This document shows positions 1-15,896 of a DNA stretch of 15,970 nucleotides, piece by piece. Source of the DNA: a virus. Lineage: Duplodnaviria; Heunggongvirae; Uroviricota; Caudoviricetes. Position 1 is the stretch's first letter. Each line of letters opens with the position of its first letter. The DNA lies in IMG/VR virus record IMGVR_UViG_2778261276_000005, positions 1 to 15,970 of that record. One strand, given 5' to 3'. The notes below the pieces were generated by a model, which had not been told where the DNA came from, searched no databases, and saw only the letters and a list, made by a program, of their open reading frames with translations. The translations under genes and the position numbers were made by a program.

Positions 1-209
1 GTGGCGGCCTCAGTCCGGAACAATTTGAAAACCAGAACCTCGCTTAGGCCTGTGTCCATATTACGTGGGTAGGATCAGTTATCCCTTCGTATCAATGACT
101 GACTCTTAAACGCAATGCTTTGGTTGCTGGCGTATCTGACAGCTTCTTCGGCGTGAAGGTCGTTGTGTAAGTATACTTCTTGGTTTATTTAGGCTATATA
201 AAACCATGA

Positions 210-1106
210 CTATGACTGGCTGTTTTCAGTAAGAGTCTTATCATCCAAAGAATTTATTCTAGAAATTCTTTTTAACTCATTAAGATAATCAACCTCGTTT
301 TCTAAGAACCAATGAAGAACTTTAGAGTTGCCAAGTAATTTATTAATATATGACTGGATTATAACGAATTTCAACATATCTGAACCATACTCGGTTTGAA
401 GTTTTTTCGTTTCTTCCGAAGTTGTTGCCATTTCTTGTTCCAGACGAAGTATGGTTTTTTTTATGTCCTTTTTATAGGGAGTGTTTTTCCCTTTATTTAC
501 TATCATCGATGACGGTGTTGCATCCAAGATGCTCATTGCAAATTTTTTACTATAATTATCAAAATTAATCATTGTACCGACTGCTTCAATTTGACGAATT
601 GGCTTCATTTTCCTCAAAACGTCAAATGTAGCCTTAGGTATAGGTTTATCAGAAAGTTTCGCAATTACACTTGGATCTATGCCGTTCATCACATTAGCTT
701 TATCTTTTATGGCATCAACAGATATGCCCAAAGCAGCACTAAGTTTTTCAATTGATACTTTTGCCAGAGACTTAATTATCATTCTATGTTCTTCAACTAC
801 ATTTATATGATTCACTTGTTTGTTAGGAGTGAAAGCATCATCTATGCTCGAAAGTATACATGGAGCTTTTTCTATATCTAAGTCTTTTAAAGCCTCAACC
901 CTTAAATGGCCATCAAGTATCTTAGTGACATCTTTATCTTTGTCATAGAATACTATTATTGGTTCAATAATACCCAAGCTTTCGATAGAGGTAACTATTT
1001 GATGATATTTATGGCTTCGCTTTACGTTTTCTAATAATTCCTTAGATGGAATTAACTTATTAGTTTCCAGGTAAATAAAATTTTTGCCAAAACGTATCTG
1101 AATCAT
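210..1106 (-). CDS. ParB/Srx-fold protein (ParB N-terminal domain-like), paralog A
   Basis: 298-aa ORF; motif ILDGHLRVEAL resembles ParB box II / DGQHR-type arginine motif; ATG overlaps stop of the upstream gene (ATGA at 1103-1106); AGAGG ribosome-binding site about 8 nt upstream; AT-rich codon usage shared with the neighbours. Confidence 0.6.
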   Translation of the reverse strand: MIQIRFGKNFIYLETNKLIPSKELLENVKRSHKYHQIVTSIESLGIIEPIIVFYDKDKDVTKILDGHLRVEALKDLDIEKAPCILSSIDDAFTPNKQVNHINVVEEHRMIIKSLAKVSIEKLSAALGISVDAIKDKANVMNGIDPSVIAKLSDKPIPKATFDVLRKMKPIRQIEAVGTMINFDNYSKKFAMSILDATPSSMIVNKGKNTPYKKDIKKTILRLEQEMATTSEETKKLQTEYGSDMLKFVIIQSYINKLLGNSKVLHWFLENEVDYLNELKRISRINSLDDKTLTENSQS

Positions 1107-1999
1107 TTTGATACCTCTTTGTTTACTGGGTTTAATATCTGAGATGGTAGTTCTGAAAGATTCTCTTGTTCAAGTATATTTTGAAAGCTTTTATTCATCA
1201 TTATGATGTTAAAAATCTCATTTATTATTAGTAGATTGGTTTTTATAAATTTCGAGTTGTTATAAACAGATTTATGTTCAGCGATACTATTTTCATAAAG
1301 CTCAATCAACTCCTCTGCAGTCATCCTTTTTGATGGTTTGTGATAATAAAATCCGGCTGCTTTTGCACCTTTATTCCCAACTGTTCTTTGATTTAGAATG
1401 TATTTTATCTTTATAATGTCCCGACTTTTTATTAATTTTTTATCATATGCTTCGGTAAGAATATCTTGTGCTTCCTCAGTTTCACATCTTGCAAATTGCA
1501 CTGCGAGATACAGAGGCAAATTACCCCGTTCGACTGCTGAGAGAAGTTTATGCTCTCCCTTATCAAGAAGCATATTAATACTGCTCACCCAGTTCGATGA
1601 ATATCCAGTAATCTCACTTATTTCGGAGTCTGAAAGTCCTCTGATTTTCATGTCTTTAATCACCTGTAATAACTCATTAGAACGTGGTCTTCTCCTTGCA
1701 ATGTTTTCAACTAAACTCATAACGTAAGCATCTTCTTCTGATACATCTCTTATAATTGCTGGAATAATAGTTTCACCTAATGCAACAAGAGCCTCTATTC
1801 TCCCTTGACCACAAATTAAAGCATATTTGAAATCGTCTTCATCAATAGTTCTTACGCTTATAGGCTTGCTTAATCCTCTTTTTTTTATGCTTTCCTTTAT
1901 TTCTTCATGCACTACCTTATTTCTTGTTCGTGGGTTAAGAAATTTTATTTTTGCAATCTCAATTTGAATTATTGGGAATTCATTTTTTTCAGGCAGCAT
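1103..1999 (-). CDS. ParB/Srx-fold protein (ParB N-terminal domain-like), paralog B
   Basis: 298-aa ORF; LICGQGRIEAL (box II-like G-x-x-R-x-x-A) and SLVENIARRRP (ParB box III-like) motifs; start overlaps the recombinase stop (1989-1999); GAGGGA ribosome-binding site 5 nt upstream. Confidence 0.65.
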   Translation of the reverse strand: MLPEKNEFPIIQIEIAKIKFLNPRTRNKVVHEEIKESIKKRGLSKPISVRTIDEDDFKYALICGQGRIEALVALGETIIPAIIRDVSEEDAYVMSLVENIARRRPRSNELLQVIKDMKIRGLSDSEISEITGYSSNWVSSINMLLDKGEHKLLSAVERGNLPLYLAVQFARCETEEAQDILTEAYDKKLIKSRDIIKIKYILNQRTVGNKGAKAAGFYYHKPSKRMTAEELIELYENSIAEHKSVYNNSKFIKTNLLIINEIFNIIMMNKSFQNILEQENLSELPSQILNPVNKEVSK

Positions 2000-3545
2000 A
2001 TAGTTCCCTCACTTTCATGCGAGTAATAATTTGTAGAAATTTATCAAGATTATCAAATCTATAGAGATCTAACCGAATGTTGTTTGTTTCCATCATACAC
2101 ATTTTACTATATTCGTTTTCAATCTTTGGTATGATATAAAAATCAAGAGGTGAAATATTTTGTGAATTCATTCGTATAACAATTGTTATGTCTGCTTTCT
2201 GTGAGTTATCAAACCGGACTTTCCATCTAAGTTTACCTGATTTCATATGTATGCATTTAGTAACAAGGACGGAAATTAAAAACTCATCATTGATGTAAAG
2301 CATTGGGTAATATTTATACTCGTCTATATGACAGTTACTTTTTAATATTTCGCCCTTAAAATCCTCAATTATCTCTGAGTAAAATGATCTTAGTGCTTCA
2401 TTTATTTGGAGATAGCTGTAATCATGTTCTGGCTTATAACCAATCAAAGTATATGCTCTTAAAAGACCACCAAATCGGGTTCTATAAACAGAAGATGAAG
2501 GGCCTGTATCATCTTCATCAATGATAAAGCCTGATAGTTTTCCATTAGATTCTAATTTTTCTTTTAGCTTTTCTAATAGATCTTCATTAGTCAAATGAAT
2601 GGATCGGAGCTGAATTATTTCTTGAGCTTTATTATATTTTTTCTTTGAAATAATTGGTTTATATGCCTTGTCACATCTAATCCATTCATGTTTGGGGTTT
2701 TTTACAAGCCTACTTTTTAGTTTAGATGAGGTTTTGTTATATATGTTGTTTCCAATATATTTTTCATTTGTCAAAATTTGATGTATTTTTGCACGAGTCC
2801 ATGATGTTCCATTTTCTGCAGGTATGCTCTGTTCATTTAATCTCTCAGCAATAATGAATTCTGGGACGTTACTATCTATAAAGAGATCATAGATTCTATT
2901 TACAATTTTTATTTCATTTTTTGGTCCCGGAATTAATATTACCCTATCTGTTTGAATACTCTTTCTTTTGCGGAAATTCAATATTTCTTTAGCTATGCCA
3001 TTTTCGTCTACTAAAAGACGTCTCAGCCCATAACCAGCCATACCGCCTTGATGATAACCAAGCTTTATTAAATTTACTTGCCCTATAAATACCTTTTCAG
3101 ATAGATTCCTGCTGTGATATGCAGCACTTGATCTTTTTATATTCAGTATAACAGAGGACTCTAAAGGGAAATCTTTAGTGGGTATAGGTTCGGAACAATA
3201 TATAAGATCTACACCATTTCTTTCAAATAGAAAGGAATAATATGCAGCTTCATCACTATTTTGAAAACGACCAAAACGGCTCACATCATAAAATAATACA
3301 GCCTGTATATCTATTTTCTTTTGTTCTACATCGCTAAGTAACTGCTGCAAAGAATGCCTGCCTACGATACTGACTCCGCTCTTACCTGCATCATCGTAGG
3401 TATAAGCGATTTCCATATTGTTCTTTTCAGCATAATCTTTGATATATTCAGACTGATTATGTAAAGAATATTGCTGATGGTCGGTAGACATCCTCAAGTA
3501 CTGTGCGACCCTAACTCTATGATTTTTTTCATTTCCGCTAGCCAT
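1989..3545 (-). CDS. Large serine recombinase (resolvase/invertase-type catalytic domain plus long C-terminal recombinase extension)
   Basis: N-terminal motif YLRMSTDHQ with the catalytic Ser, typical of serine recombinases; about 518 aa from the ATG at 3545 (the ORF track begins at a TTG at 3551); GAGG 8 nt upstream of that ATG. Confidence 0.85.
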   Translation of the reverse strand: MASGNEKNHRVRVAQYLRMSTDHQQYSLHNQSEYIKDYAEKNNMEIAYTYDDAGKSGVSIVGRHSLQQLLSDVEQKKIDIQAVLFYDVSRFGRFQNSDEAAYYSFLFERNGVDLIYCSEPIPTKDFPLESSVILNIKRSSAAYHSRNLSEKVFIGQVNLIKLGYHQGGMAGYGLRRLLVDENGIAKEILNFRKRKSIQTDRVILIPGPKNEIKIVNRIYDLFIDSNVPEFIIAERLNEQSIPAENGTSWTRAKIHQILTNEKYIGNNIYNKTSSKLKSRLVKNPKHEWIRCDKAYKPIISKKKYNKAQEIIQLRSIHLTNEDLLEKLKEKLESNGKLSGFIIDEDDTGPSSSVYRTRFGGLLRAYTLIGYKPEHDYSYLQINEALRSFYSEIIEDFKGEILKSNCHIDEYKYYPMLYINDEFLISVLVTKCIHMKSGKLRWKVRFDNSQKADITIVIRMNSQNISPLDFYIIPKIENEYSKMCMMETNNIRLDLYRFDNLDKFLQIITRMKVRELYAA

Positions 3546-3827
3546 GCACAAAACCTCATGGATGATTCAATACAATGTAGAGGATAAAATTGATCAAATT
3601 TTAACCGAATTCAACTGTTTTATCATTGATTAGAGCGAATTTGGTAGTTCTTCGAGGTGTATGATAATCGAGAAGAGATGTGAATTATTTAGCTGATATG
3701 ACCGACAGCTTTCGTTATGTGGCCTCAAGGTACCCATTTGTAAATGGCTATGCTTAGTCCACATAGGTTAATGGTGTGATCATTAATTCTTCAAATAAAT
3801 CAAGATAGTTAACCCATCATGGAAGAG

Positions 3828-5057
3828 TTATGCGGCAATAACTTTGTATTTTTGAGACGAAACATAGTCACTCCACCATTGCATGAGAACCACACGTTCT
3901 GTGAGATACTCTGCACGATTGTAGGCTGCAATTATTTCATCTTTTTTCGAGTGGGCAAGGGCGGCTTCTAAGACATCAGTTCTAAACTTGCCACACTCCT
4001 CAGCCGCCGTTCTAGCGATTGATCGCATACCATGAGCTACAAGCTCACCTCCGAAGCCCATACGGATTATAGCCGCATTAGCTGTTTGTTCATGCATGTG
4101 ATTGAGTGGAGCTTTGATACTGGGAAAAACCCACTCTCTATGCCCGCTGATGGCTTTCATTGAATCCAAGACTCGCAAAGATTCTTTGCTCAGTGGAACT
4201 TTGTGAGGCTTCTTCATTTTCATAAACTCCGCCGGGATGTTCCACATGCTGGTTTCTATATCAATATCTGACCATCTTGTGCGAACAGCTTCACCAGGGC
4301 GAACCCATGTGAGAAGTTGCCACTCAATCAGTAGCCTTGTTTCTAAACGGATAGAAGCATTGTTTAGAGCAACCAGGAAGCGGGGGAGTTCGGAAGGGGG
4401 TAATGCTGGCATATTCTGTTTTTTTGGCTTGCTGAACCGTTGCCCCAGGTTGTCAGCCGGATTGAATTCTATGAGTTCTTCTGTTGCTGCATAGCGGAAA
4501 ATTTCATTCAGGCGGGATATGACGCGGCGAAGTGTTTCAAGGACACCTCGTTTTTCTATGGGGTCTAAATGCTGTTTAAGCATTTTAGGGCGAATCTCCT
4601 TAATGGGGGTATCACCCAACGTTGGAAAGATATTTCTCTCTAGGCTTCGCCAGATGTCGTTAGCATGATCCTGGGAGATGCCTGACGTTTTGACTTTCTC
4701 ATCAAGCCACTTCTTGGCTACTGCTTGAAATGTATGTTCCGTTGCATCCTTAAGGGCATTGGCTTTGTGGGTGTTATGAACTTGTGGGTCTATACCATTT
4801 GCAAGCAACGACAAGTACTCATCACGTAAAGCTCGTGCCTTCGCAAGTGTAAGGTGAGGATAGGTTCCTAAGCTCACCTTAGTTCGCTTTTTGGTCACAG
4901 GCACTGCATATCTGAAATACCAATTTTTCTTTCCTCCCTTCGCTAAGGGGGCGATTCGCAGGAGCAAACCATCGCCGTCAAAAAGGTTAACCTCTTTCTC
5001 GGCAGGTTTGGTGCTTTTGATTTCAGTGTCAGTGAGCTTCTTAGCGATTTTTGCCAT
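3828..5057 (-). CDS. P4-family tyrosine integrase
   Basis: Arm-binding N-terminus (KNWYFRY), C-terminal catalytic region with HGMRSIARTAAEE ... LAHS ... AYNRAEY (R/H/Y catalytic residues); the ORF track extends to 5201, but the ATG at 5057 (MAKIAKKL...) has a GAGGG ribosome-binding site 8 nt upstream, giving about 410 aa. Confidence 0.9.
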   Translation of the reverse strand: MAKIAKKLTDTEIKSTKPAEKEVNLFDGDGLLLRIAPLAKGGKKNWYFRYAVPVTKKRTKVSLGTYPHLTLAKARALRDEYLSLLANGIDPQVHNTHKANALKDATEHTFQAVAKKWLDEKVKTSGISQDHANDIWRSLERNIFPTLGDTPIKEIRPKMLKQHLDPIEKRGVLETLRRVISRLNEIFRYAATEELIEFNPADNLGQRFSKPKKQNMPALPPSELPRFLVALNNASIRLETRLLIEWQLLTWVRPGEAVRTRWSDIDIETSMWNIPAEFMKMKKPHKVPLSKESLRVLDSMKAISGHREWVFPSIKAPLNHMHEQTANAAIIRMGFGGELVAHGMRSIARTAAEECGKFRTDVLEAALAHSKKDEIIAAYNRAEYLTERVVLMQWWSDYVSSQKYKVIAA

Positions 5058-5100
5058 GTTTGGGACCCTCATGTTTTGGACCCTTTGTGTTGGGTCCCAA
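5058..5100 (-). promoter_or_regulatory. Cluster of GGGACCC-type repeats just upstream of the integrase start (possible regulator or integrase binding sites)
   Basis: GTTTGGGACCC (5058-5068), GTTTTGGACCC (5073-5083) and the inverted copy TTGGGTCCC (5090-5098) within 45 bp. Confidence 0.3.
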
Positions 5101-5155
5101 AAAGGGTGCCATAACGAGTAGATTCTAGCAATTCTCGGTAGACTACTATAGACGT

Positions 5156-5189
5156 AAAAAAGCCCGCAAGGCTGGTTCCATGCGGGCTT
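5156..5189 (-). terminator. Rho-independent terminator, minus strand, just downstream of the ssrA 3'-end fragment
   Basis: Perfect 9-bp inverted repeat AAGCCCGCA / TGCGGGCTT (5160-5168 / 5181-5189) followed on the minus strand by a run of T (plus-strand A run 5156-5161). Confidence 0.6.
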
Positions 5190-5223
5190 GATAGACTTCA
5201 CTGAACTTCAATATATCAAAAAT

Positions 5224-5254
5224 TGGTGGAGCTGGCGGGAGTTGAACCCGCGTC
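5224..5254 (-). repeat. ssrA: 31-nt fragment identical to the 3' end of tmRNA (ssrA); attachment-site repeat, not a complete gene
   Basis: Minus-strand sequence GACGCGGGTTCAACTCCCGCCAGCTCCACCA matches the acceptor/T-arm 3' terminus of enterobacterial tmRNA as I recall it; similarity stops abruptly at 5255 and no tmRNA body follows. Confidence 0.8.
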
Positions 5255-5379
5255 AAAATTTATATAATCTTTTGTAAAATATACGTTTTTTCTATTGTTT
5301 TTGATCCGCGTATACTTCGCGTACACTTTGCCATTTGAACTTAAACATGCTGCCGTCGCTACATCATGACATGTTATTT

Positions 5380-6081
5380 TTACTTCTCATTTTCAAAGTC
5401 ATCACGAATGTTAATTAGATCTGTAATCAAAGCGCCAACTTTAGTTGAAGGATTTATCGAACCGTCTTTTTTGGCGGCATCTTCGACTCTTTTAGCATTG
5501 ATTAATGCCGTATCGAGCCGATCTTGCAATTTATTAAATACACCTGATGCCTTTTTCTCATAATCTGGCATGTATTTTTTTAACTCAGCTAGCATTTGTG
5601 CGCCTTCACTTTTGCCTTTCTGAGGTGAAAATGATTTTCGGGGGTATCCAAAATGTAGTATCAGCCAGTACTCGAAACATGGTATGGAAGTTATAGCAAC
5701 AAAAATCCCTTTTGGATTTAAGGAATTAATCCTGCTAAGAGCTTCATCATAGTTAGGGTGAGCGTCTCTATCAAAGACACAATAAACCTTATCATAAGGG
5801 TCGCTCCTTTTTTTTTCCGTATTATATTTTTCTTTTGCCCAAGATACCACATTCATAGGGCTTGAGCCGCACTCTCCAGAAATCTCAACTATGCTTGCCG
5901 TGCTTATACGGCAATGTTTTATAAAATCTGTAAAATATGCGGGCTCAGTCTTCTCTCCCTCACAGACGATAAGAATTTTCTTCATTTGAGCTCGTGCTTT
6001 ACTAACTCGTTTGAATTCATTATTACGCCGAGCCTTTCTTTTTTTGAACAGATCTTCGCTTCCCATTAATATCTCTCCCAT
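5380..6081 (-). CDS. RloB-like (AbiLii-family, TOPRIM/OLD-type) protein
   Basis: Motifs ILIVCEGEKTEPAYF, VFDRDAH and CFEYWLILHF characteristic of the RloB family; overlaps the upstream ATPase gene by 16 nt; an alternative ATG at 6066 (TAATG overlap, GGAG 8 nt upstream) would give 228 aa. Confidence 0.7.
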   Translation of the reverse strand: MGEILMGSEDLFKKRKARRNNEFKRVSKARAQMKKILIVCEGEKTEPAYFTDFIKHCRISTASIVEISGECGSSPMNVVSWAKEKYNTEKKRSDPYDKVYCVFDRDAHPNYDEALSRINSLNPKGIFVAITSIPCFEYWLILHFGYPRKSFSPQKGKSEGAQMLAELKKYMPDYEKKASGVFNKLQDRLDTALINAKRVEDAAKKDGSINPSTKVGALITDLINIRDDFENEK

Positions 6082-7331
6082 TTCCCAATGAGTGGTAAAG
6101 CCCCATATCTACCGTCAAGATAAGAAGCTTCTAAATTCTCCCTTCCTTTTCTTGGACTAAAATCCGTAAGTGGGAAAAGATTTGTTTGCTTTGAATTGTC
6201 TTTTTCTACAAACCAAATCTGATCTCGTCTGAAAACATCTTGATTTAAAATAGACGTCTCATGAGTTGTAAAGATTAACTGGGCACCATTCTTATTGATA
6301 TTTTTATCGTGAAATAAACCTACAATAAACTCAACTAATTTGGGGTGTAAGTTATCATTTAATTCATCAATAAACAGGATGTTTCCTGTCTCGAGTGAAT
6401 GTGATAAGGGACCCGCGAAACTAAAGATTTTTCTAGTTCCATGCGATTCATCTTTTAAATCGAATGGAATTGGCTCTCCATCCTCATTATTATGAAGTGT
6501 TTTAATGACATATTCTTCCTTGCCTTGCATATTCTTAATCACTAGTTCCTTGATGGCTGCAGGCATATCATCAGGAAGAGCATTGGGATTGAATTTTTCT
6601 TTTGTTACATGAATGTCATCAATACCTACATCGGCAGCTTTTAAAAAATTGAGAATCTCATCTTTCTTATCATTTAAGCATTGCTTTGCACTGTAATCAC
6701 TATCCCAACCTGTTAATTCAGTAAATTTAACTTTGTAATAAAACCAATCGTATACAGGTTTTAGTTGTACACTGTTTAATTGTACCGCTGTAGAAAGAAA
6801 GAGCGCATTAGGCCTAGTTGATTTCAACCATGTTTGTTTTTCTCCTGTCAACGATGGCCCCAACTCCCATTCATGGGTTTGTTTTTCTTCATCCCATAGA
6901 CGTAAAAACCATTTTTGTGGTCTGCCTTTGGGGAATGCAAATAACCATTCGTCGTGAATAAAATCTTCTGTTGCAGAAAAACCATACTGGTATCTGATGC
7001 CTTCGGAAATAAAGTTAATTTCAAATTCAGATGGTTGATTAATCTTCTTTGAGTCTAGTCTAAAAGGCGTGATATCAAGTTTATCACCACTTTTATAACC
7101 TGTAGCAGACCGGACAATAAGTTCAGCCATAGTTGTAATAGCGTTAATAATGTTTGATTTTCCGGCAGCATTAGGGCCATAAATCACAGCACTTTTAAGC
7201 AATTCAAGAGATTTAGGTTCATCAATACTGAACAGATTATTAGGCAAATCGTTAAGTTTTGATGCAACTAAACTCAGTGTTTGTTTCTCTGAAATAGATT
7301 TATAGTTTTGTACTGTAAACTCAATCAACAT
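6066..7331 (-). CDS. AAA/ABC-type ATPase (AbiLi-like, AAA_21/AAA_15-type)
   Basis: Walker A GPNAAGKS near the N-terminus, Walker B LFIDELNDNLH near the C-terminus, 421 aa; AT-rich; first gene of a two-gene operon. Confidence 0.75.
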   Translation of the reverse strand: MLIEFTVQNYKSISEKQTLSLVASKLNDLPNNLFSIDEPKSLELLKSAVIYGPNAAGKSNIINAITTMAELIVRSATGYKSGDKLDITPFRLDSKKINQPSEFEINFISEGIRYQYGFSATEDFIHDEWLFAFPKGRPQKWFLRLWDEEKQTHEWELGPSLTGEKQTWLKSTRPNALFLSTAVQLNSVQLKPVYDWFYYKVKFTELTGWDSDYSAKQCLNDKKDEILNFLKAADVGIDDIHVTKEKFNPNALPDDMPAAIKELVIKNMQGKEEYVIKTLHNNEDGEPIPFDLKDESHGTRKIFSFAGPLSHSLETGNILFIDELNDNLHPKLVEFIVGLFHDKNINKNGAQLIFTTHETSILNQDVFRRDQIWFVEKDNSKQTNLFPLTDFSPRKGRENLEASYLDGRYGALPLIGKWERY

Positions 7332-7521
7332 AATTTATACCCTTTTAACTTCCCATAGCTTAAAAACCACTAAAAGTGATTTTATAGCACAAATTTGACA
7401 AAAAACGTCAAATCTTTGCATTTAATGCACACTAAAACCATTGTACACTATCCTCATCATCCTGCTAACATTCTTGTAAGCTTTACTGTTTTGCGAAGGG
7501 GGGCTAGTGCTATCGGGCGTT

Positions 7522-8718
7522 TTACTTCTCAATTTTCATGTTCTCCGGATTTTTTGATACTTGGTCCTTACAAGCTGTCTTGCCATCATAGTCTACGAGA
7601 TACGAACCATAATGCCTGAAAAGCATTTCCGGCCCTTTATGCCCCATTTGAGCTGCAAGCCAAAACAGATTTGCTCCTCGGCTGATATGGCTGGTGGCGA
7701 ATGTATGCCTAGTTTGATATGGATTTCTGTATCGAATACCTGCTTTCCGTAATGTTGGCACCCATGCTTTTTTCCTGATTGCATCAGCACTTGCCCAAGG
7801 CTTATTGGTCTTTGGGTCTTCAAAGACAGTAGCATCCTTCATGAATGTAAATGGCTTCTGATTTATCAGCGCCAACATTGCCTCTTCTGTCAGTTCAACT
7901 TTACGAGTACCTGCTTTTGTCTTTGTCCCTTTGATAACACCGACAACACTTGCGCTCTGGACATGGGCAGTTTTTCCAACAAAGTCGATATCACGCCATC
8001 GAAGGGCACATAATTCAGAACTACGCAGGCCTGTATGTATAGCGAACCGGAACAGATTCTCCCATTGTTTGTTTCCGGCTGCTGCTAGTAATGCATCAAC
8101 TTCTGTTGGTGATAGCGGATCAACCACGTAGCTGCTTTCTACTTCTGACTTATCACTTTGGTAGCGCGAAGCAGTTACCAACGATACGGGGTTAATTTGA
8201 AGTACCCCATCGGTTACGGCTTCATCAAGTGCTGACCGCAGGAAAGATAACTGGTTGCGAATTGTTTTTAAGGTCGTTTTCTGGCTTTGAATCCACGCTT
8301 TCAGGATTGCTGGTGTTAATTCACTTGCAGGGCAAATGTGGAGTGAGGCTAACGCACTACGGCATTTTTTATAACCACCAATCGTAGATGGTGAAAGTTT
8401 TCTCGTTTCGCAGATTTCAAGGTATTCGTCCAGGTACATTTTTACCGTTTTGCCTGCAGCAGCATTACCAAAAATTTTCAAACGAGCAGAACGGGGAAAA
8501 TATTCCGCATAAATGAATGTTCCCCTTTCGATCTTATTATGAATTTCGCCGAGTGTGCGCTCGGCGTATTTAATGTTCTTTGGTGTTACTTCCAGATTGG
8601 AAAGTGGCTCACGACATTTAACTCCTTTGTAGGTGAAAGTTATATTGATCGTTTCTCCCTGACGGTGTTTTCTGATTGTTACGCCGCGCGGTAGTTTGAG
8701 CAGTTTTGTCTGGCCCAT
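7522..8718 (-). CDS. Lambda-family tyrosine integrase
   Basis: 398 aa; C-terminal catalytic region RHTFATSHISRGANLFWLAAQMGHKGPEMLFRHYGSY and a C-terminus ending ...KIEK as in lambda Int; GAGG ribosome-binding site 7 nt upstream; 5' end overlaps xis. Confidence 0.9.
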   Translation of the reverse strand: MGQTKLLKLPRGVTIRKHRQGETINITFTYKGVKCREPLSNLEVTPKNIKYAERTLGEIHNKIERGTFIYAEYFPRSARLKIFGNAAAGKTVKMYLDEYLEICETRKLSPSTIGGYKKCRSALASLHICPASELTPAILKAWIQSQKTTLKTIRNQLSFLRSALDEAVTDGVLQINPVSLVTASRYQSDKSEVESSYVVDPLSPTEVDALLAAAGNKQWENLFRFAIHTGLRSSELCALRWRDIDFVGKTAHVQSASVVGVIKGTKTKAGTRKVELTEEAMLALINQKPFTFMKDATVFEDPKTNKPWASADAIRKKAWVPTLRKAGIRYRNPYQTRHTFATSHISRGANLFWLAAQMGHKGPEMLFRHYGSYLVDYDGKTACKDQVSKNPENMKIEK

Positions 8719-8885
8719 TTTGCAACCTCACTAAGATCAATCCACCTCTCCTTAACGCCTTCAACCTTTAAAACCTGAACACCTTCACGCCAAACACCGC
8801 GCTGTACACGTTTGTTTATTGCTTCAGGAGTTTCGCCAGTTTCTTTGCAATAAGTTGAGATAGGAACGCAATCGAGGTTCAGCAT
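8679..8885 (-). CDS. Excisionase (Xis-like winged-helix DNA-binding protein)
   Basis: Small basic protein directly upstream of and overlapping int; W/R-rich pattern (VQRGVWREG...ERWIDLSEVAKW) like lambda Xis; ATG at 8885 has GGAG 6 nt upstream (the ORF track begins at a GTG at 8897). Confidence 0.65.
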   Translation of the reverse strand: MLNLDCVPISTYCKETGETPEAINKRVQRGVWREGVQVLKVEGVKERWIDLSEVAKWARQNCSNYRAA

Positions 8886-8944
8886 ATGTTTCTCCACTTA
8901 GCCCGCTGCACACGGGCAGTAATATCAAATTCCAGTCCTGATAA

Positions 8945-9160
8945 TTAATTTTGTTCTCTGGTTGCTACCTGTTTTATTGGCCTGATGCTGTCCAGGAGCA
9001 GACGGCGACGCATGTTTGGCGCACCCCAACGGTAACCAGTCTTTTTGTCGTAGGATTCACAACGTCCGGCAACCCAGGACGTTTCAGTGGAATGTAATTT
9101 CATCCGCTTTTCACCGTCTCGGGTGATAACAATTCCTGTATGAGTTTTTATCACGCTCAT
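8945..9160 (-). CDS. Hypothetical small phage protein
   Basis: 71-aa ORF; ATG overlaps the stop of the upstream gene (ATGA at 9157-9160), i.e. translationally coupled within the leftward operon. Confidence 0.45.
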   Translation of the reverse strand: MSVIKTHTGIVITRDGEKRMKLHSTETSWVAGRCESYDKKTGYRWGAPNMRRRLLLDSIRPIKQVATREQN

Positions 9161-9519
9161 TTCTTAGTCTCTGGTGCTTTCGGCATTACTGCCCAGTGAG
9201 TGATATTGACGTTTTCAAGGTCCCCGACCTGAAATGTCCACTGCCATTCTCCGGTTTCTTTTTGCCCCCATGTGTACCAGAGAGAACGCCAGCCAATCAG
9301 CCAGCCTTCTCCATTAGCATCAAATAACAGAACACTTTCATTTGCTGGCGGCAGTTCAGCTGACACTGGTATTACTTTGTTTTCCAGAGCCGCACATTTA
9401 GCTTCAAGCGCATCGAATTTACGTACCAGATACTCAGCATTTGTTTCATTCACTTTCAGATCTCGCGGTACACATTTCCCGCGAAGAACCCCTTCCATTT
9501 CGAAAACATTCATGCGCAT
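9157..9519 (-). CDS. Hypothetical phage protein (Trp-rich C-terminus; YfdS-like by size and position)
   Basis: 120-aa ORF; GGAG 8 nt upstream of the ATG; overlaps the stop of the upstream HD-domain gene by 10 nt. Confidence 0.55.
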   Translation of the reverse strand: MRMNVFEMEGVLRGKCVPRDLKVNETNAEYLVRKFDALEAKCAALENKVIPVSAELPPANESVLLFDANGEGWLIGWRSLWYTWGQKETGEWQWTFQVGDLENVNITHWAVMPKAPETKK

Positions 9520-10046
9520 TTGCGTAACTCCGATAATTCGTTAAAGCGTTCCATAAACATCCCGTAGGCATGGCCTGGAGCCAGTGGAATCACGTTGAAC
9601 ATCTCTGTTGCCGGGATACCTTCCAGCACAGGCCAGAAAGAGCCATCATCAAGCCCGAGATCGCGGCGTTCGGTTGCCAGCATGATGAGATCGGCATATT
9701 TCACGGGGGTACTCATAACCGGGGGTAACCCGTATTTCTCACGGATTACGGCGTCTATTTTTTCTTCCATCCGTTTATAGTCAGGAAGAAGGCGTTTCAG
9801 TGGCGCCGGGATGTCCTGGCAATACGCTTCTGTTGCATCATGCATTAACGCTTCAAAAGCAAATTCCTGCGGTACCAGTTGGCTGCAAAGCACCGCATGT
9901 TGGGCGACGCTGTAGAAATGTGAAAGATGTCCTGCAAAGCGACAGATATTTGAAAGAGAAACCGCGATATCGTTAATAACGATGTCGTCTTTATTTATCC
10001 TGTCATAATAAAAATGCTTCCCGGAAAAAGTTTTAATAAATGACAT
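9510..10046 (-). CDS. HD-domain metal-dependent phosphohydrolase (YfdR-like putative 5'-deoxynucleotidase)
   Basis: H...HD motif pattern (SVAQHAVLCSQL, LMHDATEAYCQDIP); the ORF track starts at a GTG at 10073, but the ATG at 10046 has GGAG 8 nt upstream and gives 178 aa. Confidence 0.75.
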   Translation of the reverse strand: MSFIKTFSGKHFYYDRINKDDIVINDIAVSLSNICRFAGHLSHFYSVAQHAVLCSQLVPQEFAFEALMHDATEAYCQDIPAPLKRLLPDYKRMEEKIDAVIREKYGLPPVMSTPVKYADLIMLATERRDLGLDDGSFWPVLEGIPATEMFNVIPLAPGHAYGMFMERFNELSELRKCA

Positions 10047-10139
10047 TTTGTTCTCCACGTATATGCGCTGCACCGCGCTGAATTCTGGTAAAAGGAAGCC
10101 CTCACCATCCGGCGATTATTGAGTCAATTACGTTTCCAT

Positions 10140-10161
10140 AAATGCCCCCGCAGGGGCATTT
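10140..10161 (-). terminator. Perfect stem-loop right after the stop of the upstream gene (weak terminator or stability hairpin)
   Basis: AAATGCCCC-CGCA-GGGGCATTT, 9-bp stem with a 4-nt loop, 13 nt downstream of the stop at 10174; only a short U-tract. Confidence 0.35.
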
Positions 10162-10173
10162 GCAGTAATGAAA

Positions 10174-10998
10174 TCAGGCGGTGAAAGTACCAATAAAGGT
10201 TTCTACTTTGCTGTCCTTGAATTTCTCAACAAGCAGATCACGAAATTCGTTAGCCATTTCTTCCTGCACTGCTTCCAGCTGAATAATGCGCAGAACCAGT
10301 ACAGGACGATCGCCAGTGATAATGCTGAGGCGTAATTTAAACGGACGTTCTTTCAGGCCTTCAAACGGAACGCATTTAAATTCAAATGCCACAGGCATAA
10401 TATCTTTGGTCTTCGCTTCGACAGACTCCATCAGGGAGCGTTTGCCGCTGAAGTCATTGTCTTCAAAATCAGCGGTCTGGTTTGCTTCAATCGTGATTTT
10501 ACGGACTGCCGCAGCCGCTTTTGTTGCCTGAATGGCATCACCATTAGCATCAAAGCCCACAAGGTAGTCGGCCCAGTCTTCGATCCATTCTGCCAGTGAC
10601 TTCTGGGAGTTACGCTCGCCGTTAACAGACAACAGAGCAGAGAACGGTGCTGTCTTTTTCAGTTTGAGAGTGGCAGTGTTATCTGCGTGACCTGGCTCAT
10701 CAATAGTACCCAGGTTAAGCACACTGACGGCACGCATATTATCGGCATCGATAAAGCAGCGGGTGCCTTCATCTGCAAGATCTTTAGAATAACGAGTAAA
10801 GTCATCGATGCTGGCAGTGGAAAGCGCACCACGGAAACGGAAACGATTTAAATTAAATTTTTCCAGATCATGAATGCGGAAATTCTCAGGCAATGCCACA
10901 GCATCGGCACCAATCTTACTGATAATTTCATTAACACCCTGAGCAGAAATAAGGGCATGGATTTGATTAATTGCGGTTGCGTCTAAGTTCTGAGACAT
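10174..10998 (-). CDS. Phage protein of unknown function (YfdQ-like, 274 aa)
   Basis: Long ORF with GAGGA ribosome-binding site 6 nt upstream of the ATG; size and neighbourhood match the yfdQ-type gene of KplE1/CPS-53-like prophages (from memory, unverified). Confidence 0.65.
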
Positions 10999-11063
10999 AA
11001 TAAGTCCTCACTATATAAAAATATTCAGTGATGAGAGAAATAATCAGTTTATTAAAAACGATA

Positions 11064-11426
11064 TTAATGACCTGCTGCGCGGAGTTTTCCGTCAGGTTCA
11101 CCGGCAAGAGTCAGTAATTGTCCCTGGTCTTCCTGCAGAATAGTCAGGCGACCACCGCGATTGACATACATCGGCGTTTCGGTGGTGTCTTCTTCGGAAA
11201 TTTTCCCGCGGTTAGTCGGGCGAACATATGAGAGTTTGTGTTTGATTTTCACACGGTTCTCATCAAATGGTTCGATTTCCAGGTTGAGTGAGACCTTACC
11301 TTTGGTTTTCGTGTTCATCACACCGGAAGCGACTTCACTGAGAACTGCGCCGATTTTTGTTTCAAATACGCCGCCGTCCAGCTCCCCGATAAATGCCTGC
11401 ACATCAGTACTGCGTTCGCTAGCCAT
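11064..11426 (-). CDS. Hypothetical phage protein, first gene of the leftward early operon
   Basis: ORF track gives 197 aa from 11657, but the N-terminal 77 codons run through the GC-rich hairpin region; the ATG at 11426 (MASERSTDV...) has GAGGAG 7 nt upstream and gives 120 aa. Confidence 0.55.
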   Translation of the reverse strand: MASERSTDVQAFIGELDGGVFETKIGAVLSEVASGVMNTKTKGKVSLNLEIEPFDENRVKIKHKLSYVRPTNRGKISEEDTTETPMYVNRGGRLTILQEDQGQLLTLAGEPDGKLRAAGH

Positions 11427-11562
11427 TTTGTTGCTCCTCATCATATCGACCCTGCAAGGCCGATTAGTTTCTCCACAAAACAGAGAAGAACACCTGCGGT
11501 GGCAGCCGCCCGGATGGATTGGGTTATGAGCCCGTCGTCCGGTGATGCTCTTCTCTGTTTTG

Positions 11563-11609
11563 TAAAAAGAGCGGTACCAGCCGGAAGCAAGTGTACAAAC
11601 TGGTACCGC
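11563..11609 (-). terminator. Strong intrinsic terminator on the minus strand inside the leader of the leftward operon
   Basis: Perfect 10-bp inverted repeat GCGGTACCAG / CTGGTACCGC (11571-11580 / 11600-11609) followed on the minus strand by TCTTTTTA. Confidence 0.6.
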
Positions 11610-12020
11610 CAAAGCAGTGGCTGTTGTGGTGGGGTTGTCACTCAGGCGTATGGTCAACCTGACAATCCGGTGTCCTCAACGGGGAAAGAGTAACCCCGCC
11701 ATACTTACCGCCGCGCCATTTCGCGGATGACCACAACGCTGAGAGCACTTAGCCAGTTACGGCACCACACTTTGTCGCGGCTCCATAAATGCCCTCATCG
11801 TTGCACCCTGGTCTCTTCCCAGGCGTCAAACCGGATCGCCACGCTGGTTAGGCGTCTTATCAGCATCATCATTGACTTGCACATTCCGGCTACCTGGTTT
11901 GTTTGCCCTAGCAAGGAGTGGATTGTCCCCTTTAACGTCCCCAGACCGCTAACGACGCATGTGCCATACGCCGTGTTACAACCAAATTTTGTTAGTACCT
12001 TGTTTGTTGGTCTGGAAAGA

Positions 12021-12049
12021 AAGATAAAATGAAATTGCGCGTTGTGCAA
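12021..12049 (-). promoter_or_regulatory. Candidate pL-like promoter for the leftward early operon
   Basis: Minus strand TTGCAC - 17 nt - TATCTT; the -35 overlaps a 15-bp TTGC-N7-GCAA operator-like palindrome. Confidence 0.4.
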
Positions 12050-12072
12050 GTGTTTTGTTGCGAGATATGCAA
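12035..12072. promoter_or_regulatory. Two operator-like palindromes (oL-like)
   Basis: TTGCGCGTTGTGCAA (12035-12049) and TTGCGAGATATGCAA (12058-12072) share the TTGC-N7-GCAA architecture with a site in the cI-cro intergenic region. Confidence 0.5.
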
Positions 12073-12082
12073 TTTAATGGGT

Positions 12083-12107
12083 AATGAAAAGCCACCTTCG
12101 GGTGGCT
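12083..12107 (-). terminator. Rho-independent terminator following the cI-like repressor gene
   Basis: Stem GCCACC-TTCG-GGTGGC (12091-12106) about 20 nt after the cI stop, followed on the minus strand by TTTTCATT. Confidence 0.65.
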
Positions 12108-12127
12108 AATTGATGAGGAGGTAAGGG

Positions 12128-12820
12128 TTAATTGTGTCGCTTAAGGGTTTGTGACTGGCTGATTAAGACCTTTCCAAAGACCATAAACCGGTGTTCATTT
12201 TCGCTGGTAATTCCCCATTCACGGTAAATCTGGTTATCAGAAATCACCAGTAGTTTGTCAGGTATCATTTGCAGTCGTTTGACATAAATTTTATCATCAA
12301 AACCAAATACATAGATACCATCTCCATCAAACTGATTGATACTGACATCAACGAAGATGAGATCTCCTGGCTCAATGGTTGGACACATACTGTCCCCACG
12401 AACGTTGATAACTTTAATGTGATTGGCTGGTCGTCCGCCAAACATCGATACAGCATTATCAGTTCTGTATTCAATGGCATGAATCACATCAATGACATCA
12501 CCGCCCTGGATAAGGCCATTTCCCGCACTGGCACTGACATCCAGCATTTCAATACGGAATACATCCTTCACCTGCGCAACATCCTCACTAATACTGTTTT
12601 TACATACAGTATTACTTTTGAAGTCTGAGGTAAAGAGATCAGCAATATCAACACCTAAGCTCCTGGCAATATTACTCAGGGCTTGTTCAGTGAATTGTTT
12701 CTGCTTACCTGTTTCCAGGCGTGAGATATTCGCCGCATCCACTCCTATTGCTTCAGCGAGATCGGCGATTTTCATGTTCTTCGCCTGGCGAAGTTGTCTG
12801 ACTCGATTTCCTATGTTCAT
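12128..12820 (-). CDS. cI-like prophage repressor (XRE-type HTH plus LexA-like S24 autopeptidase domain)
   Basis: N-terminal HTH (VRQLRQAKNMKIADLAEAIGVDAANISRLETGKQ), C-terminal GDSM ... VKRL Ser/Lys dyad pattern; divergent from a cro-like gene. Confidence 0.9.
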   Translation of the reverse strand: MNIGNRVRQLRQAKNMKIADLAEAIGVDAANISRLETGKQKQFTEQALSNIARSLGVDIADLFTSDFKSNTVCKNSISEDVAQVKDVFRIEMLDVSASAGNGLIQGGDVIDVIHAIEYRTDNAVSMFGGRPANHIKVINVRGDSMCPTIEPGDLIFVDVSINQFDGDGIYVFGFDDKIYVKRLQMIPDKLLVISDNQIYREWGITSENEHRFMVFGKVLISQSQTLKRHN

Positions 12821-12917
12821 GCGTTTATTACATTTCTTTATTGCGCGTTAAGCAAATCAACTTGCGCAAAATAGTTGCGTGAAATAATATGCTTATCACG
12901 CAATATGTGGAGGTTAT
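12821..12917. promoter_or_regulatory. Immunity-region control region: divergent pRM-like and pR-like promoters with operator-like sites
   Basis: Plus strand TTGCGC (12862-12867) - 17 nt - TAATAT (12885-12890) then GGAGG and the cro ATG; minus strand TTGCTT (12855-12850) - 17 nt - TGTAAT (12832-12827) ending 6 nt before the cI ATG; palindrome TTGCGCGTTAAGCAA (12841-12855) and inverted repeat TTGCGTGA-N13-TCACGCAA (12875-12903). Confidence 0.6.
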
Positions 12918-13178
12918 ATGCAATCACCATTACGGAATGTGCGTAAAGCGCACGGATTTACTTTGCAGCATGTTGCTGCGGGCGTTCAGGTCAATCCAGC
13001 GACGCTGAGTCGTATTGAAAGACTGGAACAAATTCCATCTATCGACCTTGCAGAACGTCTGGCCAATTTTTTTAAGGGTGAAATCAGCGAAATGCAGATT
13101 CTTTATCCGGCACGTTTTCAATCTAGCCAAAACCAGAATGGGTTTAAACCACAGGAACAGGAGGTAAGCCGTGGGTAA
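12918..13178 (+). CDS. Cro-like HTH regulator
   Basis: 86 aa; HTH FTLQHVAAGVQVNPATLSRIER; GGAGG ribosome-binding site; divergent from cI across the operator region. Confidence 0.75.
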   Translation: MQSPLRNVRKAHGFTLQHVAAGVQVNPATLSRIERLEQIPSIDLAERLANFFKGEISEMQILYPARFQSSQNQNGFKPQEQEVSRG

Positions 13179-13722
13179 GCATCACTGGAAAGTGGAAAAA
13201 CAGCCTGAGTGGTACGTGAAAGCTGTCAGAAAAACTATCGCGGCGTTGCCGGGGGGGTACGCTGAAGCTGCTGAGTGGCTGGATGTAACAGAGAACGCTT
13301 TATTCAACCGCCTTCGTGCAGATGGCGATCAGATTTTCCCGCTGGGATGGGCAATGATTTTACAGCGCGCTGCTGGCACTCACTACATTGCGGATGCTGT
13401 CGCACAGTCTGCTGGTGGGGTGTTTGTATCGCTTCCTGAAATTGAGGAAGTAGAGAACGCAGATATAAACCAGCGCCTGCTGGAAGTCATCGAACAGATC
13501 GGGAGTTACTCAAAGCAGATTCGTTCGGCAATCGAAGATGGGGTAGTGGAGCCACACGAGCAGACAGCAATTAATGATGAATTGTATCTGTCAATTTCGA
13601 AGCTCCAGGAGCATGCGGCACTGGTCTACAAAATTTTCTGCGCTCCAGAAAAGAGTGACGCCCGCGAGTGTGCAGCTCCGGGCGTCGTGGCGTTTTGTGT
13701 CTGTGGAGAAACTAACGCATGA
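13171..13722 (+). CDS. cII-like / phage regulatory protein (putative)
   Basis: 183 aa, GTG start with GGAGG 6 nt upstream, overlapping the cro stop by 8 nt; position and acidic, helix-rich sequence suggest a CII/CP76-type regulator, but the family assignment is uncertain. Confidence 0.5.
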   Translation: MGKHHWKVEKQPEWYVKAVRKTIAALPGGYAEAAEWLDVTENALFNRLRADGDQIFPLGWAMILQRAAGTHYIADAVAQSAGGVFVSLPEIEEVENADINQRLLEVIEQIGSYSKQIRSAIEDGVVEPHEQTAINDELYLSISKLQEHAALVYKIFCAPEKSDARECAAPGVVAFCVCGETNA

Positions 13723-14870
13723 ACAGTTTAACGGCAAATAACCGTTTGTCGCAACAGCTGGTGGTCAGTGTCGCTGCACACCTGTTGTTACGGCATGAAT
13801 GCAGATTACCAAATCACCTGGCTGTAAGTAACCACAGAGAACTTTACCTGACTGTGGGGGGCGAGTTGTGCAGGAACTTAACCGCTGGTTTCGTGACGGA
13901 AGAGGACTTTATGTTCATGTTATTCGTTGGGAGCCAGAAACACAGCGCGTTATCTATCTTCGCAAAGACTACCCGCATGAGTGCTTTAGTCCTTTGTGGA
14001 AATTCAGGCGTGATTTTGTTGAGTGTGAAGGACCACCAGCACATTGATTCTGCCATTCCGGGACGTTACACTGTTCAGGCACCTTATAAAACGGGTGCCG
14101 GGCGTGGAAACCCGGAATTCACCAAAGCGCACAACCGCGCTCTTGCGGTTTTTTTGTGTCATGAGCAGCATTACGCCCAAATTATGGTGGGGCGTGCAGG
14201 GCCAACTTCGGTTGGGCCGGGTTCTTTGGTGACCGGTATTTCCACCCCTGTACGTCTCACCACCAATAAGGTCGTGGAAAGCCTTGGTGGTGAGTTATTA
14301 AAAATCACCAAAGAGGCTGCCATCATGGCTACGATCCCAACCCTCACTCAACCTGAAATTGCCATCGTTGATGGTCAGGCTGTTACTTCATCTCTGGCTG
14401 TTGCCAACTTCTTCTCCAAACGTCATGACGATGTACTGAAAAAGATCCGCACGCTTGAATGCTCCGCATCATTCACTGCCCGCAATTTTTCGGTGAGTGA
14501 TTACACCGATTGCACAGGCCGCAAACTACCTTGCTATCAAATAACCCGCGACGGCTTTGCGTTTCTTGCTATGGGGTTCACGGGTAAACGTGCTGCCCAG
14601 TTCAAAGAGGCATACATCAATGCCTTTAACCAGATGGAGAAACAGCTTTCAAAGCCCGCTGTACCGAGCGACGTTGCACATAACGCCAGCGTTCTCTGTT
14701 CCTACATTTCATCAATTCATCAGGTCTGGCTGCAGCAGCTTTATCCTATGTTGGCAAAAGCCGAATCCCCGCTGGCTGTTAGCTTGTATGACTATATTAA
14801 TGATGCTTCGGCACTGGCCTGCCTCATAAATTTGTCACTGAACCCTTCAGAGGTAAGGGGGCGCAAATGA
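13719..14870 (+). CDS. Rha-family phage regulatory protein (Rha domain in the C-terminal half; N-terminal about 200 aa of unclear assignment)
   Basis: Frame open for 383 codons with ATG overlapping the upstream stop (ATGA at 13719-13722); Rha-type motif IAIVDGQAVTSSLAVANFFSKRHDDVLKKIRTL begins just after an internal ATG at 14325, which has AAGAGG 9 nt upstream and may be the true start. Confidence 0.55.
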   Translation: MNSLTANNRLSQQLVVSVAAHLLLRHECRLPNHLAVSNHRELYLTVGGELCRNLTAGFVTEEDFMFMLFVGSQKHSALSIFAKTTRMSALVLCGNSGVILLSVKDHQHIDSAIPGRYTVQAPYKTGAGRGNPEFTKAHNRALAVFLCHEQHYAQIMVGRAGPTSVGPGSLVTGISTPVRLTTNKVVESLGGELLKITKEAAIMATIPTLTQPEIAIVDGQAVTSSLAVANFFSKRHDDVLKKIRTLECSASFTARNFSVSDYTDCTGRKLPCYQITRDGFAFLAMGFTGKRAAQFKEAYINAFNQMEKQLSKPAVPSDVAHNASVLCSYISSIHQVWLQQLYPMLAKAESPLAVSLYDYINDASALACLINLSLNPSEVRGRK

Positions 14871-15091
14871 TCCGGAATATTTTCAAACGGTTTACCAATC
14901 ATACTTTCCGTTGTCCTCGTCCGGGTCAGTGGTACACCACGCCTGCAGGGCATGTTCTACGTGTTAGCCTGGTGGACCGTGAATGTCAGAAGGTGATTTG
15001 TGAACCGCTGGGCCGTAATTACCGCGTCAGTATGCCGCTTATAGCCTTTTGCTCCGGAAAAAACATGAAGCATCTCGGAGGTGCAGCATGA
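14867..15091 (+). CDS. Hypothetical small phage protein
   Basis: 74-aa ORF; ATGA overlap with the Rha stop at 14867-14870, and its own stop overlaps the next start (ATGA at 15088-15091). Confidence 0.45.
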   Translation: MIRNIFKRFTNHTFRCPRPGQWYTTPAGHVLRVSLVDRECQKVICEPLGRNYRVSMPLIAFCSGKNMKHLGGAA

Positions 15092-15894: not shown

Positions 15895-15896
15895 TC

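Follow-up and report, generated by a model that had tools for sequence, protein, structure and literature searches.

The integration module of the Dehalococcoides ssrA islands encodes DsiB, a CcrB-like large serine recombinase (LSR), together with DsiA, a RecF-like protein, a ParBc protein and Mom (PMC3146451). The stretch of DNA analysed here (the window; 15,970 nucleotides (nt), positions 1 to 15,970 of IMG/VR record IMGVR_UViG_2778261276_000005) is Escherichia coli chromosome at the ssrA (transfer-messenger RNA, tmRNA) island, of CP4-57 type. It carries a trio of genes for an LSR and two ParB-fold proteins, ParB1 and ParB2. The Dehalococcoides module, which is conserved and located at the edge of its ssrA island, resembles the trio in combining an LSR gene with one for a ParB-fold protein (PMC3146451). 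In the Dehalococcoides module and in CcrAB of SCCmec, the LSR is the integrase of the island and lies beside attL; it is accompanied by a second, small serine recombinase and by a single ParBc protein of ~210 amino acids (aa). In contrast, the trio has no second recombinase, encodes two full-length ParB/RepB proteins and has a fixed gene order; in E. coli, a tyrosine integrase is also placed between the trio and ssrA.

Phage-type LSRs are exemplified by phiC31, Bxb1 and the SPbeta pair SprA-SprB, with which the trio LSR has in common a catalytic domain, an alpha-E helix and a recombinase domain. These phage integrases need a separate protein partner for control, and the same is proposed for the trio LSR. 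The trio LSR differs in having a family-specific, HNH_repeat-like domain in place of the zinc ribbon and coiled coil, and its partners are two ParB-type DNA binders where the phage integrases have a small directionality factor.

ParB, Noc and KorB (with KorA) are clamps with an N-terminal domain and a helix-turn-helix (HTH) fold; both are found in the two trio ParBs. The GxxRxxA and ENxxR boxes of the clamps are kept in ParB1, and a RepB-type C-terminal domain is present in ParB1 and ParB2 alike. Unlike the clamps, the trio has no ParA partner and no recognised parS. Its ParBs are diverged paralogues that form an obligate pair, and their coupling is to a recombinase and not to segregation, tethering to the membrane or transcription.

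In the Sin-Hbsu, Hin/Gin-Fis and Tn3/gamma-delta res systems, accessory DNA-binding proteins build the synapse and impose selectivity. The logic proposed for the trio would, by analogy, resemble that of these accessory sites. For Sin, Hin, Gin and Tn3, the accessory role is filled by proteins of the host or by additional recombinase copies; in the trio, it would be filled by two dedicated, co-translated ParB-fold proteins which may be nucleotide-gated. The parts of the trio are all of known kinds; the obligate combination of an LSR with a ParB pair is new in the literature searched. Searches of that literature, RefSeq accessions included, and of the databases gave no paper and no family that describes the trio. 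A 'recombinase family protein' in a T4 paper, considered as a trio LSR, is pinR/pinQ.

The original prediction described three overlapping minus-strand genes at 210-3551 as a single operon of an LSR and two ParB-fold genes, and this three-gene observation is confirmed. The genes and their leader are as follows:

1989-3545, minus strand: LSR, 518 aa; the ATG at 3545 is the RefSeq start
1103-1999, minus strand: ParB1, 298 aa (protein B of the original prediction)
210-1106, minus strand: ParB2, 298 aa (protein A of the original prediction)
3546-3827, minus strand: leader, 282 bp, from the integrase stop to the LSR start (sequence, consensus scan and inverted-repeat list)

The LSR open reading frame (ORF) occupies 1989-3551 on the minus strand, and an alternative TTG start at 3551 gives a protein of 520 aa. 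The LSR and ParB1 genes overlap by 11 nt (1989-1999) and the ParB1 and ParB2 genes by 4 nt (ATGA at 1103-1106); GAGG-type Shine-Dalgarno sites are found ahead of all three starts. Coordinates, overlaps and ribosome-binding sites are thus all present as claimed. The motifs YLRMSTDHQ, LICGQGRIEAL, SLVENIARRRP and ILDGHLRVEAL can each be found in the trio proteins, and the trio is indeed more AT-rich than the integrase that flanks it (GC content 0.29-0.36 versus 0.44-0.47). The leader contains a promoter-like site at 3626-3598, which overlaps a TTGATCAA-centred near-palindrome at 3586-3605 (consensus scan and inverted-repeat list); together they are a putative promoter/operator. No regulator gene is present in the E. 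coli leader, whereas most relatives have one upstream.

The LSR matches two Pfam families, Resolvase (PF00239, 7.5e-22) and Recombinase (PF07508, 4.6e-22, residues 212-314). The catalytic residues R18, S20, D87, R90 and R93 are invariant (59 and 137 orthologues); Ser20 is the nucleophile, and the motifs YVRMST.HQ and DVSRWGRF are likewise invariant among orthologues. An AlphaFold model (pLDDT 75) shows the catalytic domain, the alpha-E helix and the recombinase domain, followed by a helical segment (301-402) and a beta-rich domain (407-473). Foldseek matches this model to the SPbeta SprA, Bxb1 and phiC31 integrases (E 6e-13 to 1e-09), with only ~320 columns aligned. CcrB is the top NCBIfam match of the LSR, at 9e-18, which is far under the cutoff of that family.

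No zinc-ribbon or coiled-coil domain is matched in Pfam, either by the whole LSR at E <= 0.01 or by residues 321-518 at E <= 0.1. C117 and C431 are the only invariant cysteines, and a cysteine cluster is absent. The C-terminal 198 aa form a family of their own with 1,315 representatives (50% clustering), 502 of them with E <= 1e-10. The first ~54 residues of this domain resemble a diverged 'homing endonuclease associated repeat', or HNH_repeat (PF18780). In a sister LSR family known from metagenomic proteins (P0246, P0277, P0283 and P0291), four to seven tandem PF18780 repeats replace the zinc ribbon; the trio LSR retains one diverged copy, as against the arrays of its sisters. On these features, the LSR is an active-looking serine recombinase that appears to lack the usual att-recognition domain.

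ParB1 has the layout of a ParB protein, with an N-terminal CTPase-type domain (CTP, cytidine triphosphate), an HTH domain and a RepB-type C-terminal domain. It matches ParB_N (PF02195) at 1.3e-13 and RepB at 31.2 bits (cutoff 30), and passes the cutoff of TIGR00180. In phmmer searches, ParB1 aligns over its N-terminal and HTH domains with Spo0J (residues 8-188), Noc and Myxococcus xanthus ParB. ParB1 contains each of the three nucleotide boxes (NPRTRN, G64-Q-G-R67 and E98-N..R102), and the corresponding NPRxRN, CGQGRLEA and SLVENxARR are conserved over 132 orthologues.

ParB2 matches RepB strongly (5e-24) and ParB_N at 24.2 bits, slightly under the cutoff of 26.3. It aligns with Noc over residues 11-174 in a phmmer search of the PDB. 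Its AlphaFold model (pLDDT 79.5) is matched by Foldseek to ParB-CTPgammaS, Noc, ParB-CDP and KorB over ~200 columns with probability 1.00. The L64-D-G-H-x-R69 motif is kept and the HTH region is present; the ENxxR box is absent. ParB2 is a diverged ParB-fold protein, its fold being confirmed separately by this model. The ParB fold that had been predicted for both 298-aa proteins is therefore found by profile hidden Markov models, by PDB sequence matches and by AlphaFold/Foldseek alike. Their predicted paralogy stands at the level of domains; in sequence, they are distant paralogues with only 30% identity over 63 aa (E = 0.003). ParB1 and ParB2 each have their own orthologue at a fixed position in all other loci.

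The trio is an obligate three-protein unit. The order LSR-ParB1-ParB2, with abutting genes, is found in ~140 loci from at least five phyla; median spacing is 0 nt between LSR and ParB1 and -9 nt between ParB1 and ParB2. Because this order and these tight junctions recur in ~140 independent loci, the layout is far beyond chance. A scan of one genome per species gave at least 572 species with LSR matches, of which the best 80 loci were examined; these come from Alpha-, Beta- and Gammaproteobacteria, Acidobacteriota, Planctomycetota, and Bdellovibrionota-like and Clostridia bins. ParB1 and then ParB2 follow the LSR in every locus long enough to judge, except for two decayed loci and one cut by an insertion sequence (IS). 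The order is the same in 54 non-enterobacterial loci of the viral collection. Among the candidates scored in profile searches, clustering at 90% identity gave at least 6,470 clusters for the LSR and at least 6,944 for ParB2.

Plasmids of Agrobacterium C58 (pAt), Burkholderia, Piscinibacter, Sphingobium and Marinibacterium carry full-length LSR homologues (42-48% identity), with two 'RepB C-terminal domain' genes behind each of them. No universal fourth gene is conserved across loci; there are three alternative upstream regulators, none of them in the enterobacterial type.

Two fusions have been found among the relatives. In locus L006 (NZ_CP110863.1), ParB1 and ParB2 are encoded by a single ORF of 594 aa; in the metagenomic protein P0379, the LSR is joined to a RepB-domain protein. 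Either could be a sequencing artefact. The sequence of L006, a 13.5-kb 'Lactiplantibacillus plantarum plasmid', has long ORFs in all six frames, as in high-GC DNA; the contig was probably assigned to the wrong organism.

The flanks of the trio are not conserved, with the exception of the gene immediately upstream. Three unrelated families alternate directly upstream of the trio, and one subtype is accompanied by a structured RNA:

L021:9466-9849: U-a, a divergent HTH-like protein of ~125 aa with the motif MFPKKGKxFP...WTGASERTAKNW; 65 of 141 loci
L044:9337-9765: U-b, a co-directional, Cys-rich basic protein with the motif CxxC...CQRERRR; 26 of 141 loci
L059:9319-9783: U-c, an OmpR-type winged helix; 6 of 141 loci
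L043:7460-7612, and L021:13331-13482 and 18365-18515: structured RNA; also at ~100 other loci, and not in the window

A further 36 of the 141 loci, including all enterobacterial copies, do not have an upstream regulator. Neither U-a nor U-b belongs to a Pfam family.

In the U-a subtype, ~150 nt straight after the ParB2 stop are better conserved than the trio genes themselves. This element folds into five helices, in which 98.1% of cells are paired (100 distinct sequences), versus 32-43% when the partners are slid. Compensatory changes are seen in 12 pairs, and the observed values were reached by none of 500 shuffles. G-U pairs outnumber A-C pairs (87 versus 22); this points to RNA (or a single strand) of coding sense. 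Rfam gave no match to it, whether gathering thresholds or relaxed E-values were applied. Among 73 testable metagenomic copies of its 5' motif, 68 have the end of ParB2 no more than 200 nt upstream. U-a is present in 49 of 55 RNA-positive loci; U-b and U-c are present in none. The element represents a new, well-supported family of structured RNA that is tied to one trio subtype.

The covariance model finds no RNA in the window, in enterobacterial loci or in U-b and U-c loci, and the 3' flanks of these share no motif. Since the model is blank in enterobacterial loci, the RNA is a feature of one subtype and does not belong to the E. coli copy. A few orphan or second RNA copies are known; in L021, a second copy lies 5 kb downstream of the first, and the two bracket a PLD/helicase-like gene and a PIN_12 gene.

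Enterobacterial copies of the trio are widespread and uniform. The trio is found in 660 of 5,426 complete E. coli genomes (12%), in 620 of them at >=80% coverage. It occurs once per genome, bar one exception, and all 661 places are chromosomal, with none on plasmids. Copies with 95-99% identity occur in Leclercia, Klebsiella, Salmonella, Enterobacter, Citrobacter and Cronobacter. The island edge in the window is marked by two features:

3828-5057, minus strand: P4/IntA-type tyrosine integrase, 409 aa (RefSeq start); NF007246 at 444.6 bits, with Arm-DNA-bind_3, Phage_int_M and Phage_integrase domains
5201-5254, minus strand: repeat of the ssrA 3' end, the att site and island edge; 54 nt with 100% identity to ssrA positions 333-386

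The integrase (PRK09692, IntA-like) is the constant neighbour of the trio in Enterobacteriaceae; in the contexts examined from Leclercia, Klebsiella, Salmonella and Enterobacter, integrase and trio keep a constant spacing. The genes past the enterobacterial trio vary, and include Mrr, ScoMcrA/HNH, HNH_5, DUF5677 and ThiF/ABC genes. That the trio lies directly beside a P4-family integrase, as first proposed, is borne out by the NF007246 match. The P4 setting itself needs amendment; the integrase is of P4 type and the element is a CP4-57-type ssrA island, as seen from the ssrA repeat and from ypjA and ypjC in sister strains. The trio had also been seen as variable cargo of such a satellite. In Enterobacteriaceae, it does not behave as freely exchanged cargo: integrase and trio form one block with 95-99% identity in E. 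coli, Leclercia, Klebsiella, Salmonella and Enterobacter. However, E. coli O103:H2 has a related integrase (~95% identity) with other genes where the trio would lie.

Outside the enterobacteria, the trio moves as a cassette. In five Rhodobacterales genomes, nucleotide identity of 86-93% is limited to the ~3.5-4 kb cassette and the flanks differ; identity stops just past the RNA and its hairpin. The left border at the LSR start is a rapidly diverging intergenic region between regulator and LSR, not the end of an element.

The cassette has a range of carriers. On pAtC58, the trio lies between AbiE and Fic genes (AbiEii; SoFic 2.9e-125). In a Tn7-like element, TnsA-TnsB-TniB-TniQ are immediately upstream and the trio comes directly after TniQ, in the first cargo position. 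The trio is also found on conjugative plasmids, and ParDE toxin-antitoxin pairs are among its neighbours. Surveys of neighbours gave tyrosine integrases, ParB_N-methyltransferases, Cas1, DUF499, type ISP enzymes and restriction-modification methylases; such neighbours are typical of the accessory regions of mobile elements. Many trio copies from the virus collection adjoin tail-fibre and lysis genes; this collection is biased, as IMG/VR provirus borders are set at integrase-like genes. Typically, the trio is located at the border between core and cargo of islands, transposons, prophages and plasmids.

In five of the 80 unbiased loci (L023, L059, L063, L074 and L078, from different orders and including one Planctomycetota bin), genes for a ParB_N-DNA methylase, DUF5681 and a large terminase come next after the trio. 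The trio here occupies the packaging end of a family of prophages, and host genes begin a few kb upstream of it. A phage origin of the genes was considered and rejected: the GenBank phage set has the trio in one unverified 7.4-kb contig, and no more than these five of the 80 unbiased loci adjoin phage genes.

It is tentatively proposed that the trio is a ParB-assisted site-specific recombination module carried by mobile DNA. This reading is put forward because of the strict coupling of the three genes, the missing LSR domain, the position at the core/cargo border and the Dehalococcoides precedent; the invariant catalytic residues, the fusions, the movement of the cassette and the upstream regulators of three unrelated families are further points in its support. 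In such a module, ParB1 and ParB2 would form a heterodimer that binds a specific site via the HTH domains. The heterodimer, probably controlled by CTP, would recruit, position or license the LSR, which would then cut and rejoin DNA of the carrier element in integration/excision, resolution or movement of the cassette. The ParB pair may thereby replace the roles of the missing domain in site selection and direction control, as accessory proteins do for other serine recombinases.

A number of points weigh against such a recombination module. Repeat searches at the cassette ends and around the E. coli copy identified no attP or attB for the LSR and no convincing terminal, att, res or flanking repeats. 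No rearrangement, excision or second insertion site is seen among the 660 E. coli genomes, and a tyrosine integrase already belongs to the E. coli island. The proposed complex, its binding of CTP and its DNA targets are inferences, and the neighbourhoods of the trio are equally expected of a defence system. Of the three hypotheses in the original prediction, none of which is proven, a recombinase with ParB accessory factors fits best.

The main rival reading, possible if somewhat unlikely, is that the trio is instead an anti-phage or anti-plasmid system, in which the ParB pair loads onto an invader and the LSR makes covalent double-strand breaks in it or scrambles it. The patchy, horizontal distribution (presence in 12% of E. 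coli genomes, enterobacterial genera sharing 95-99% identity, transfer at the level of the cassette) and the AT-rich, foreign nature of the DNA are in keeping with this. So are the defence and toxin neighbours, which include AbiL in the window, AbiEii and SoFic on pAtC58, Mrr, ScoMcrA and HNH in Klebsiella and Salmonella, ParDE, Cas1, DUF499 and restriction-modification genes; the same can be said of the first cargo slot of the Tn7-like element, the prophage ends and the possession of regulators. ParB/Srx proteins are also involved in conflict between elements, for example Osa and DndB (cited in PMC10853773).

T-phages, lambda DE3 and plasmids of many types have their standard permissive hosts in strains of the BL21 type. 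The trio is intact in E. coli B strains including BL21(DE3), where the entire island consists of integrase, trio and IS1; this argues against defence, and only against a broad, constitutively active system. The enterobacterial trio also keeps its place beside the integrase, with turnover limited to the genes past it, and no paper on such a defence system was found in the literature searched. The original prediction had recognised no named defence system in the trio, and none fits: in PADLOC-DB v2, neither LSR nor ParB1 has a match, and the sole match of ParB2 (3.8e-06) is to a methyltransferase model, at the ParB-like N-terminus of that model. Defence screens commonly discard operons that contain recombinases; the missing PADLOC match therefore does not exclude defence.

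An autonomous mini mobile element, i.e. a serine-recombinase 'transposon' of ~3.5-4.5 kb with ParB-like target-selection or immunity factors, is improbable. It would account for the sharp ends of homology at the cassette borders between distant Rhodobacterales, for the very diverse contexts and for the orphan and second copies of the 3' RNA. Terminal inverted repeats are missing from known LSR or IS607-type elements too, so their absence here is compatible with such an element. However, E. coli has a single copy at one site, a second LSR-like match is present in only one of ~140 loci and is weak, and no ends or target duplications were recognised; the apparent left border, as noted above, is a fast-evolving intergenic region.

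The trio is not a ParABS partition system. No ParA-type gene is present in the window, and among the neighbours surveyed (130 downstream, 150 upstream) ParA is not one of the 25 most frequent Pfam families; the inverted-repeat list contains nothing recognisable as a parS-like repeat. A module of plasmid type for partition and multimer resolution, stabilising a replicon or an excised island, is very improbable as well. ParB_N and the RepB domain of repABC plasmids are found in both small proteins, and there are full-length homologues on large alphaproteobacterial and Burkholderia plasmids. Against this, a full-length LSR homologue is present on only 65 of 72,556 plasmids, all E. coli places are chromosomal, and the carrier plasmids have their own replication and partition loci elsewhere. 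On these counts, the trio is not mainly a plasmid feature, and no ParA family came up in the neighbour surveys; the plasmid-borne partition modules that would have refuted the original prediction are thus not what is seen. A plasmid origin of the E. coli block was rejected; megablast against the 72,556 plasmids matched the IS3 end of the window alone.

Phase variation, in which the LSR would invert a nearby promoter or gene segment, can practically be dismissed: relatives are labelled 'DNA invertase Pin-like' by JGI, some copies adjoin phage tail-fibre genes (solely in the virus-biased collection), and a 20-nt inverted repeat with 85% complementarity joins the leader (3586-3605) to the LSR interior (2770-2789), but the LSR has 518 aa versus ~190 aa for an invertase with a C-terminal HTH, this sole inverted repeat is AT-rich and not convincing, inversion between its arms would disrupt the LSR gene, and no inverted variants exist among the 661 places in 660 E. 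coli records.

The surroundings of the trio in the window reflect repeated use of the ssrA site. In sister genomes, the gene order is smpB, ssrA, integrase, LSR, ParB1, ParB2, IS3 and CP4-57-type remnants (ypjA, ypjC); the CP4-57-type neighbours annotated in sister strains are ypjA, ypjC and a YfjP-like GTPase. A short 'recombinase' pseudogene between ypjC and ypjA, considered as a relative of the LSR, is unrelated to it. No complete tmRNA gene was found within the window, where the ssrA 3' end is present only as the 54-nt repeat. Two elements lie in tandem at the ssrA att site with this repeat between them: the island with the P4-type integrase and a lambdoid prophage. The prophage, beyond 5201-5254, used the same ssrA site and has its own integrase at 7522-8718.

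An AbiLi/AbiLii pair (AbiLi, AAA_21 ATPase, PADLOC 4e-101; AbiLii, RloB, 3e-29) is encoded between the two integrases at 5380-7331 on the minus strand; it is part of the integrase-proximal end of the prophage and not of the trio island. In the early region of the prophage, isrK (67.9 bits) and C4 antisense RNA (83.6 bits), both identified with Rfam, lie side by side at 14079-14267 on the plus strand and adjoin a Rha-type regulator. This pair is a P1/P7-like antisense immunity element.

On its other side, the trio is cut short by an IS3 end, which occupies window positions 1-74 and truncates the 3' flank:

75-209, minus strand: remnant of the 3' flank, 135 bp, shortened by the IS3 end; homology to Leclercia begins at window position 76

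In Salmonella, Leclercia and E. coli IAL7250, this flank is a non-coding, AT-rich region of ~0.96 kb with 97-98% identity (L093:11337-12298, L010:13337-14266). No Rfam match and no credible ORF were found in the 0.96-kb enterobacterial flank, and an Erwinia relative does not have it. It contains a (GCAATA)n microsatellite, which is expanded in Salmonella. IS3-family elements and IS1 have landed independently ~10-400 bp past ParB2 in various enterobacteria (L091/L092, 11564; L095, 11725; L176, 7965-8662), often with loss of the DNA beyond; repeated IS insertions are found 10-240 bp from the ParB2 stop. The E. coli trio itself is sometimes broken by IS2, IS903B, ISApl1 or IS100.

LSRs are prized tools in genome engineering, and the recognition of ParB-CTP clamps as a class of molecular switch is recent. 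The trio is abundant, being found in several phyla and in 12% of E. coli genomes, and its presence in intact form in BL21(DE3) makes it directly testable in a standard strain. A bolder and rather doubtful proposal is that the ParB pair acts as a heterodimeric, CTP-gated clamp which finds or tracks DNA and allows the LSR to cut or recombine it, providing either a new anti-plasmid/anti-phage immunity or clamp-guided, RNA-associated recombination, with the largest subtype using a dedicated structured RNA that has no known relatives. The structured RNA is in itself a new family with an obvious genetic partner. If the trio acts in defence, it would represent a new effector logic; if it is true that the ParB pair provides site choice or direction control, the trio would represent a new principle for targeting a serine recombinase.

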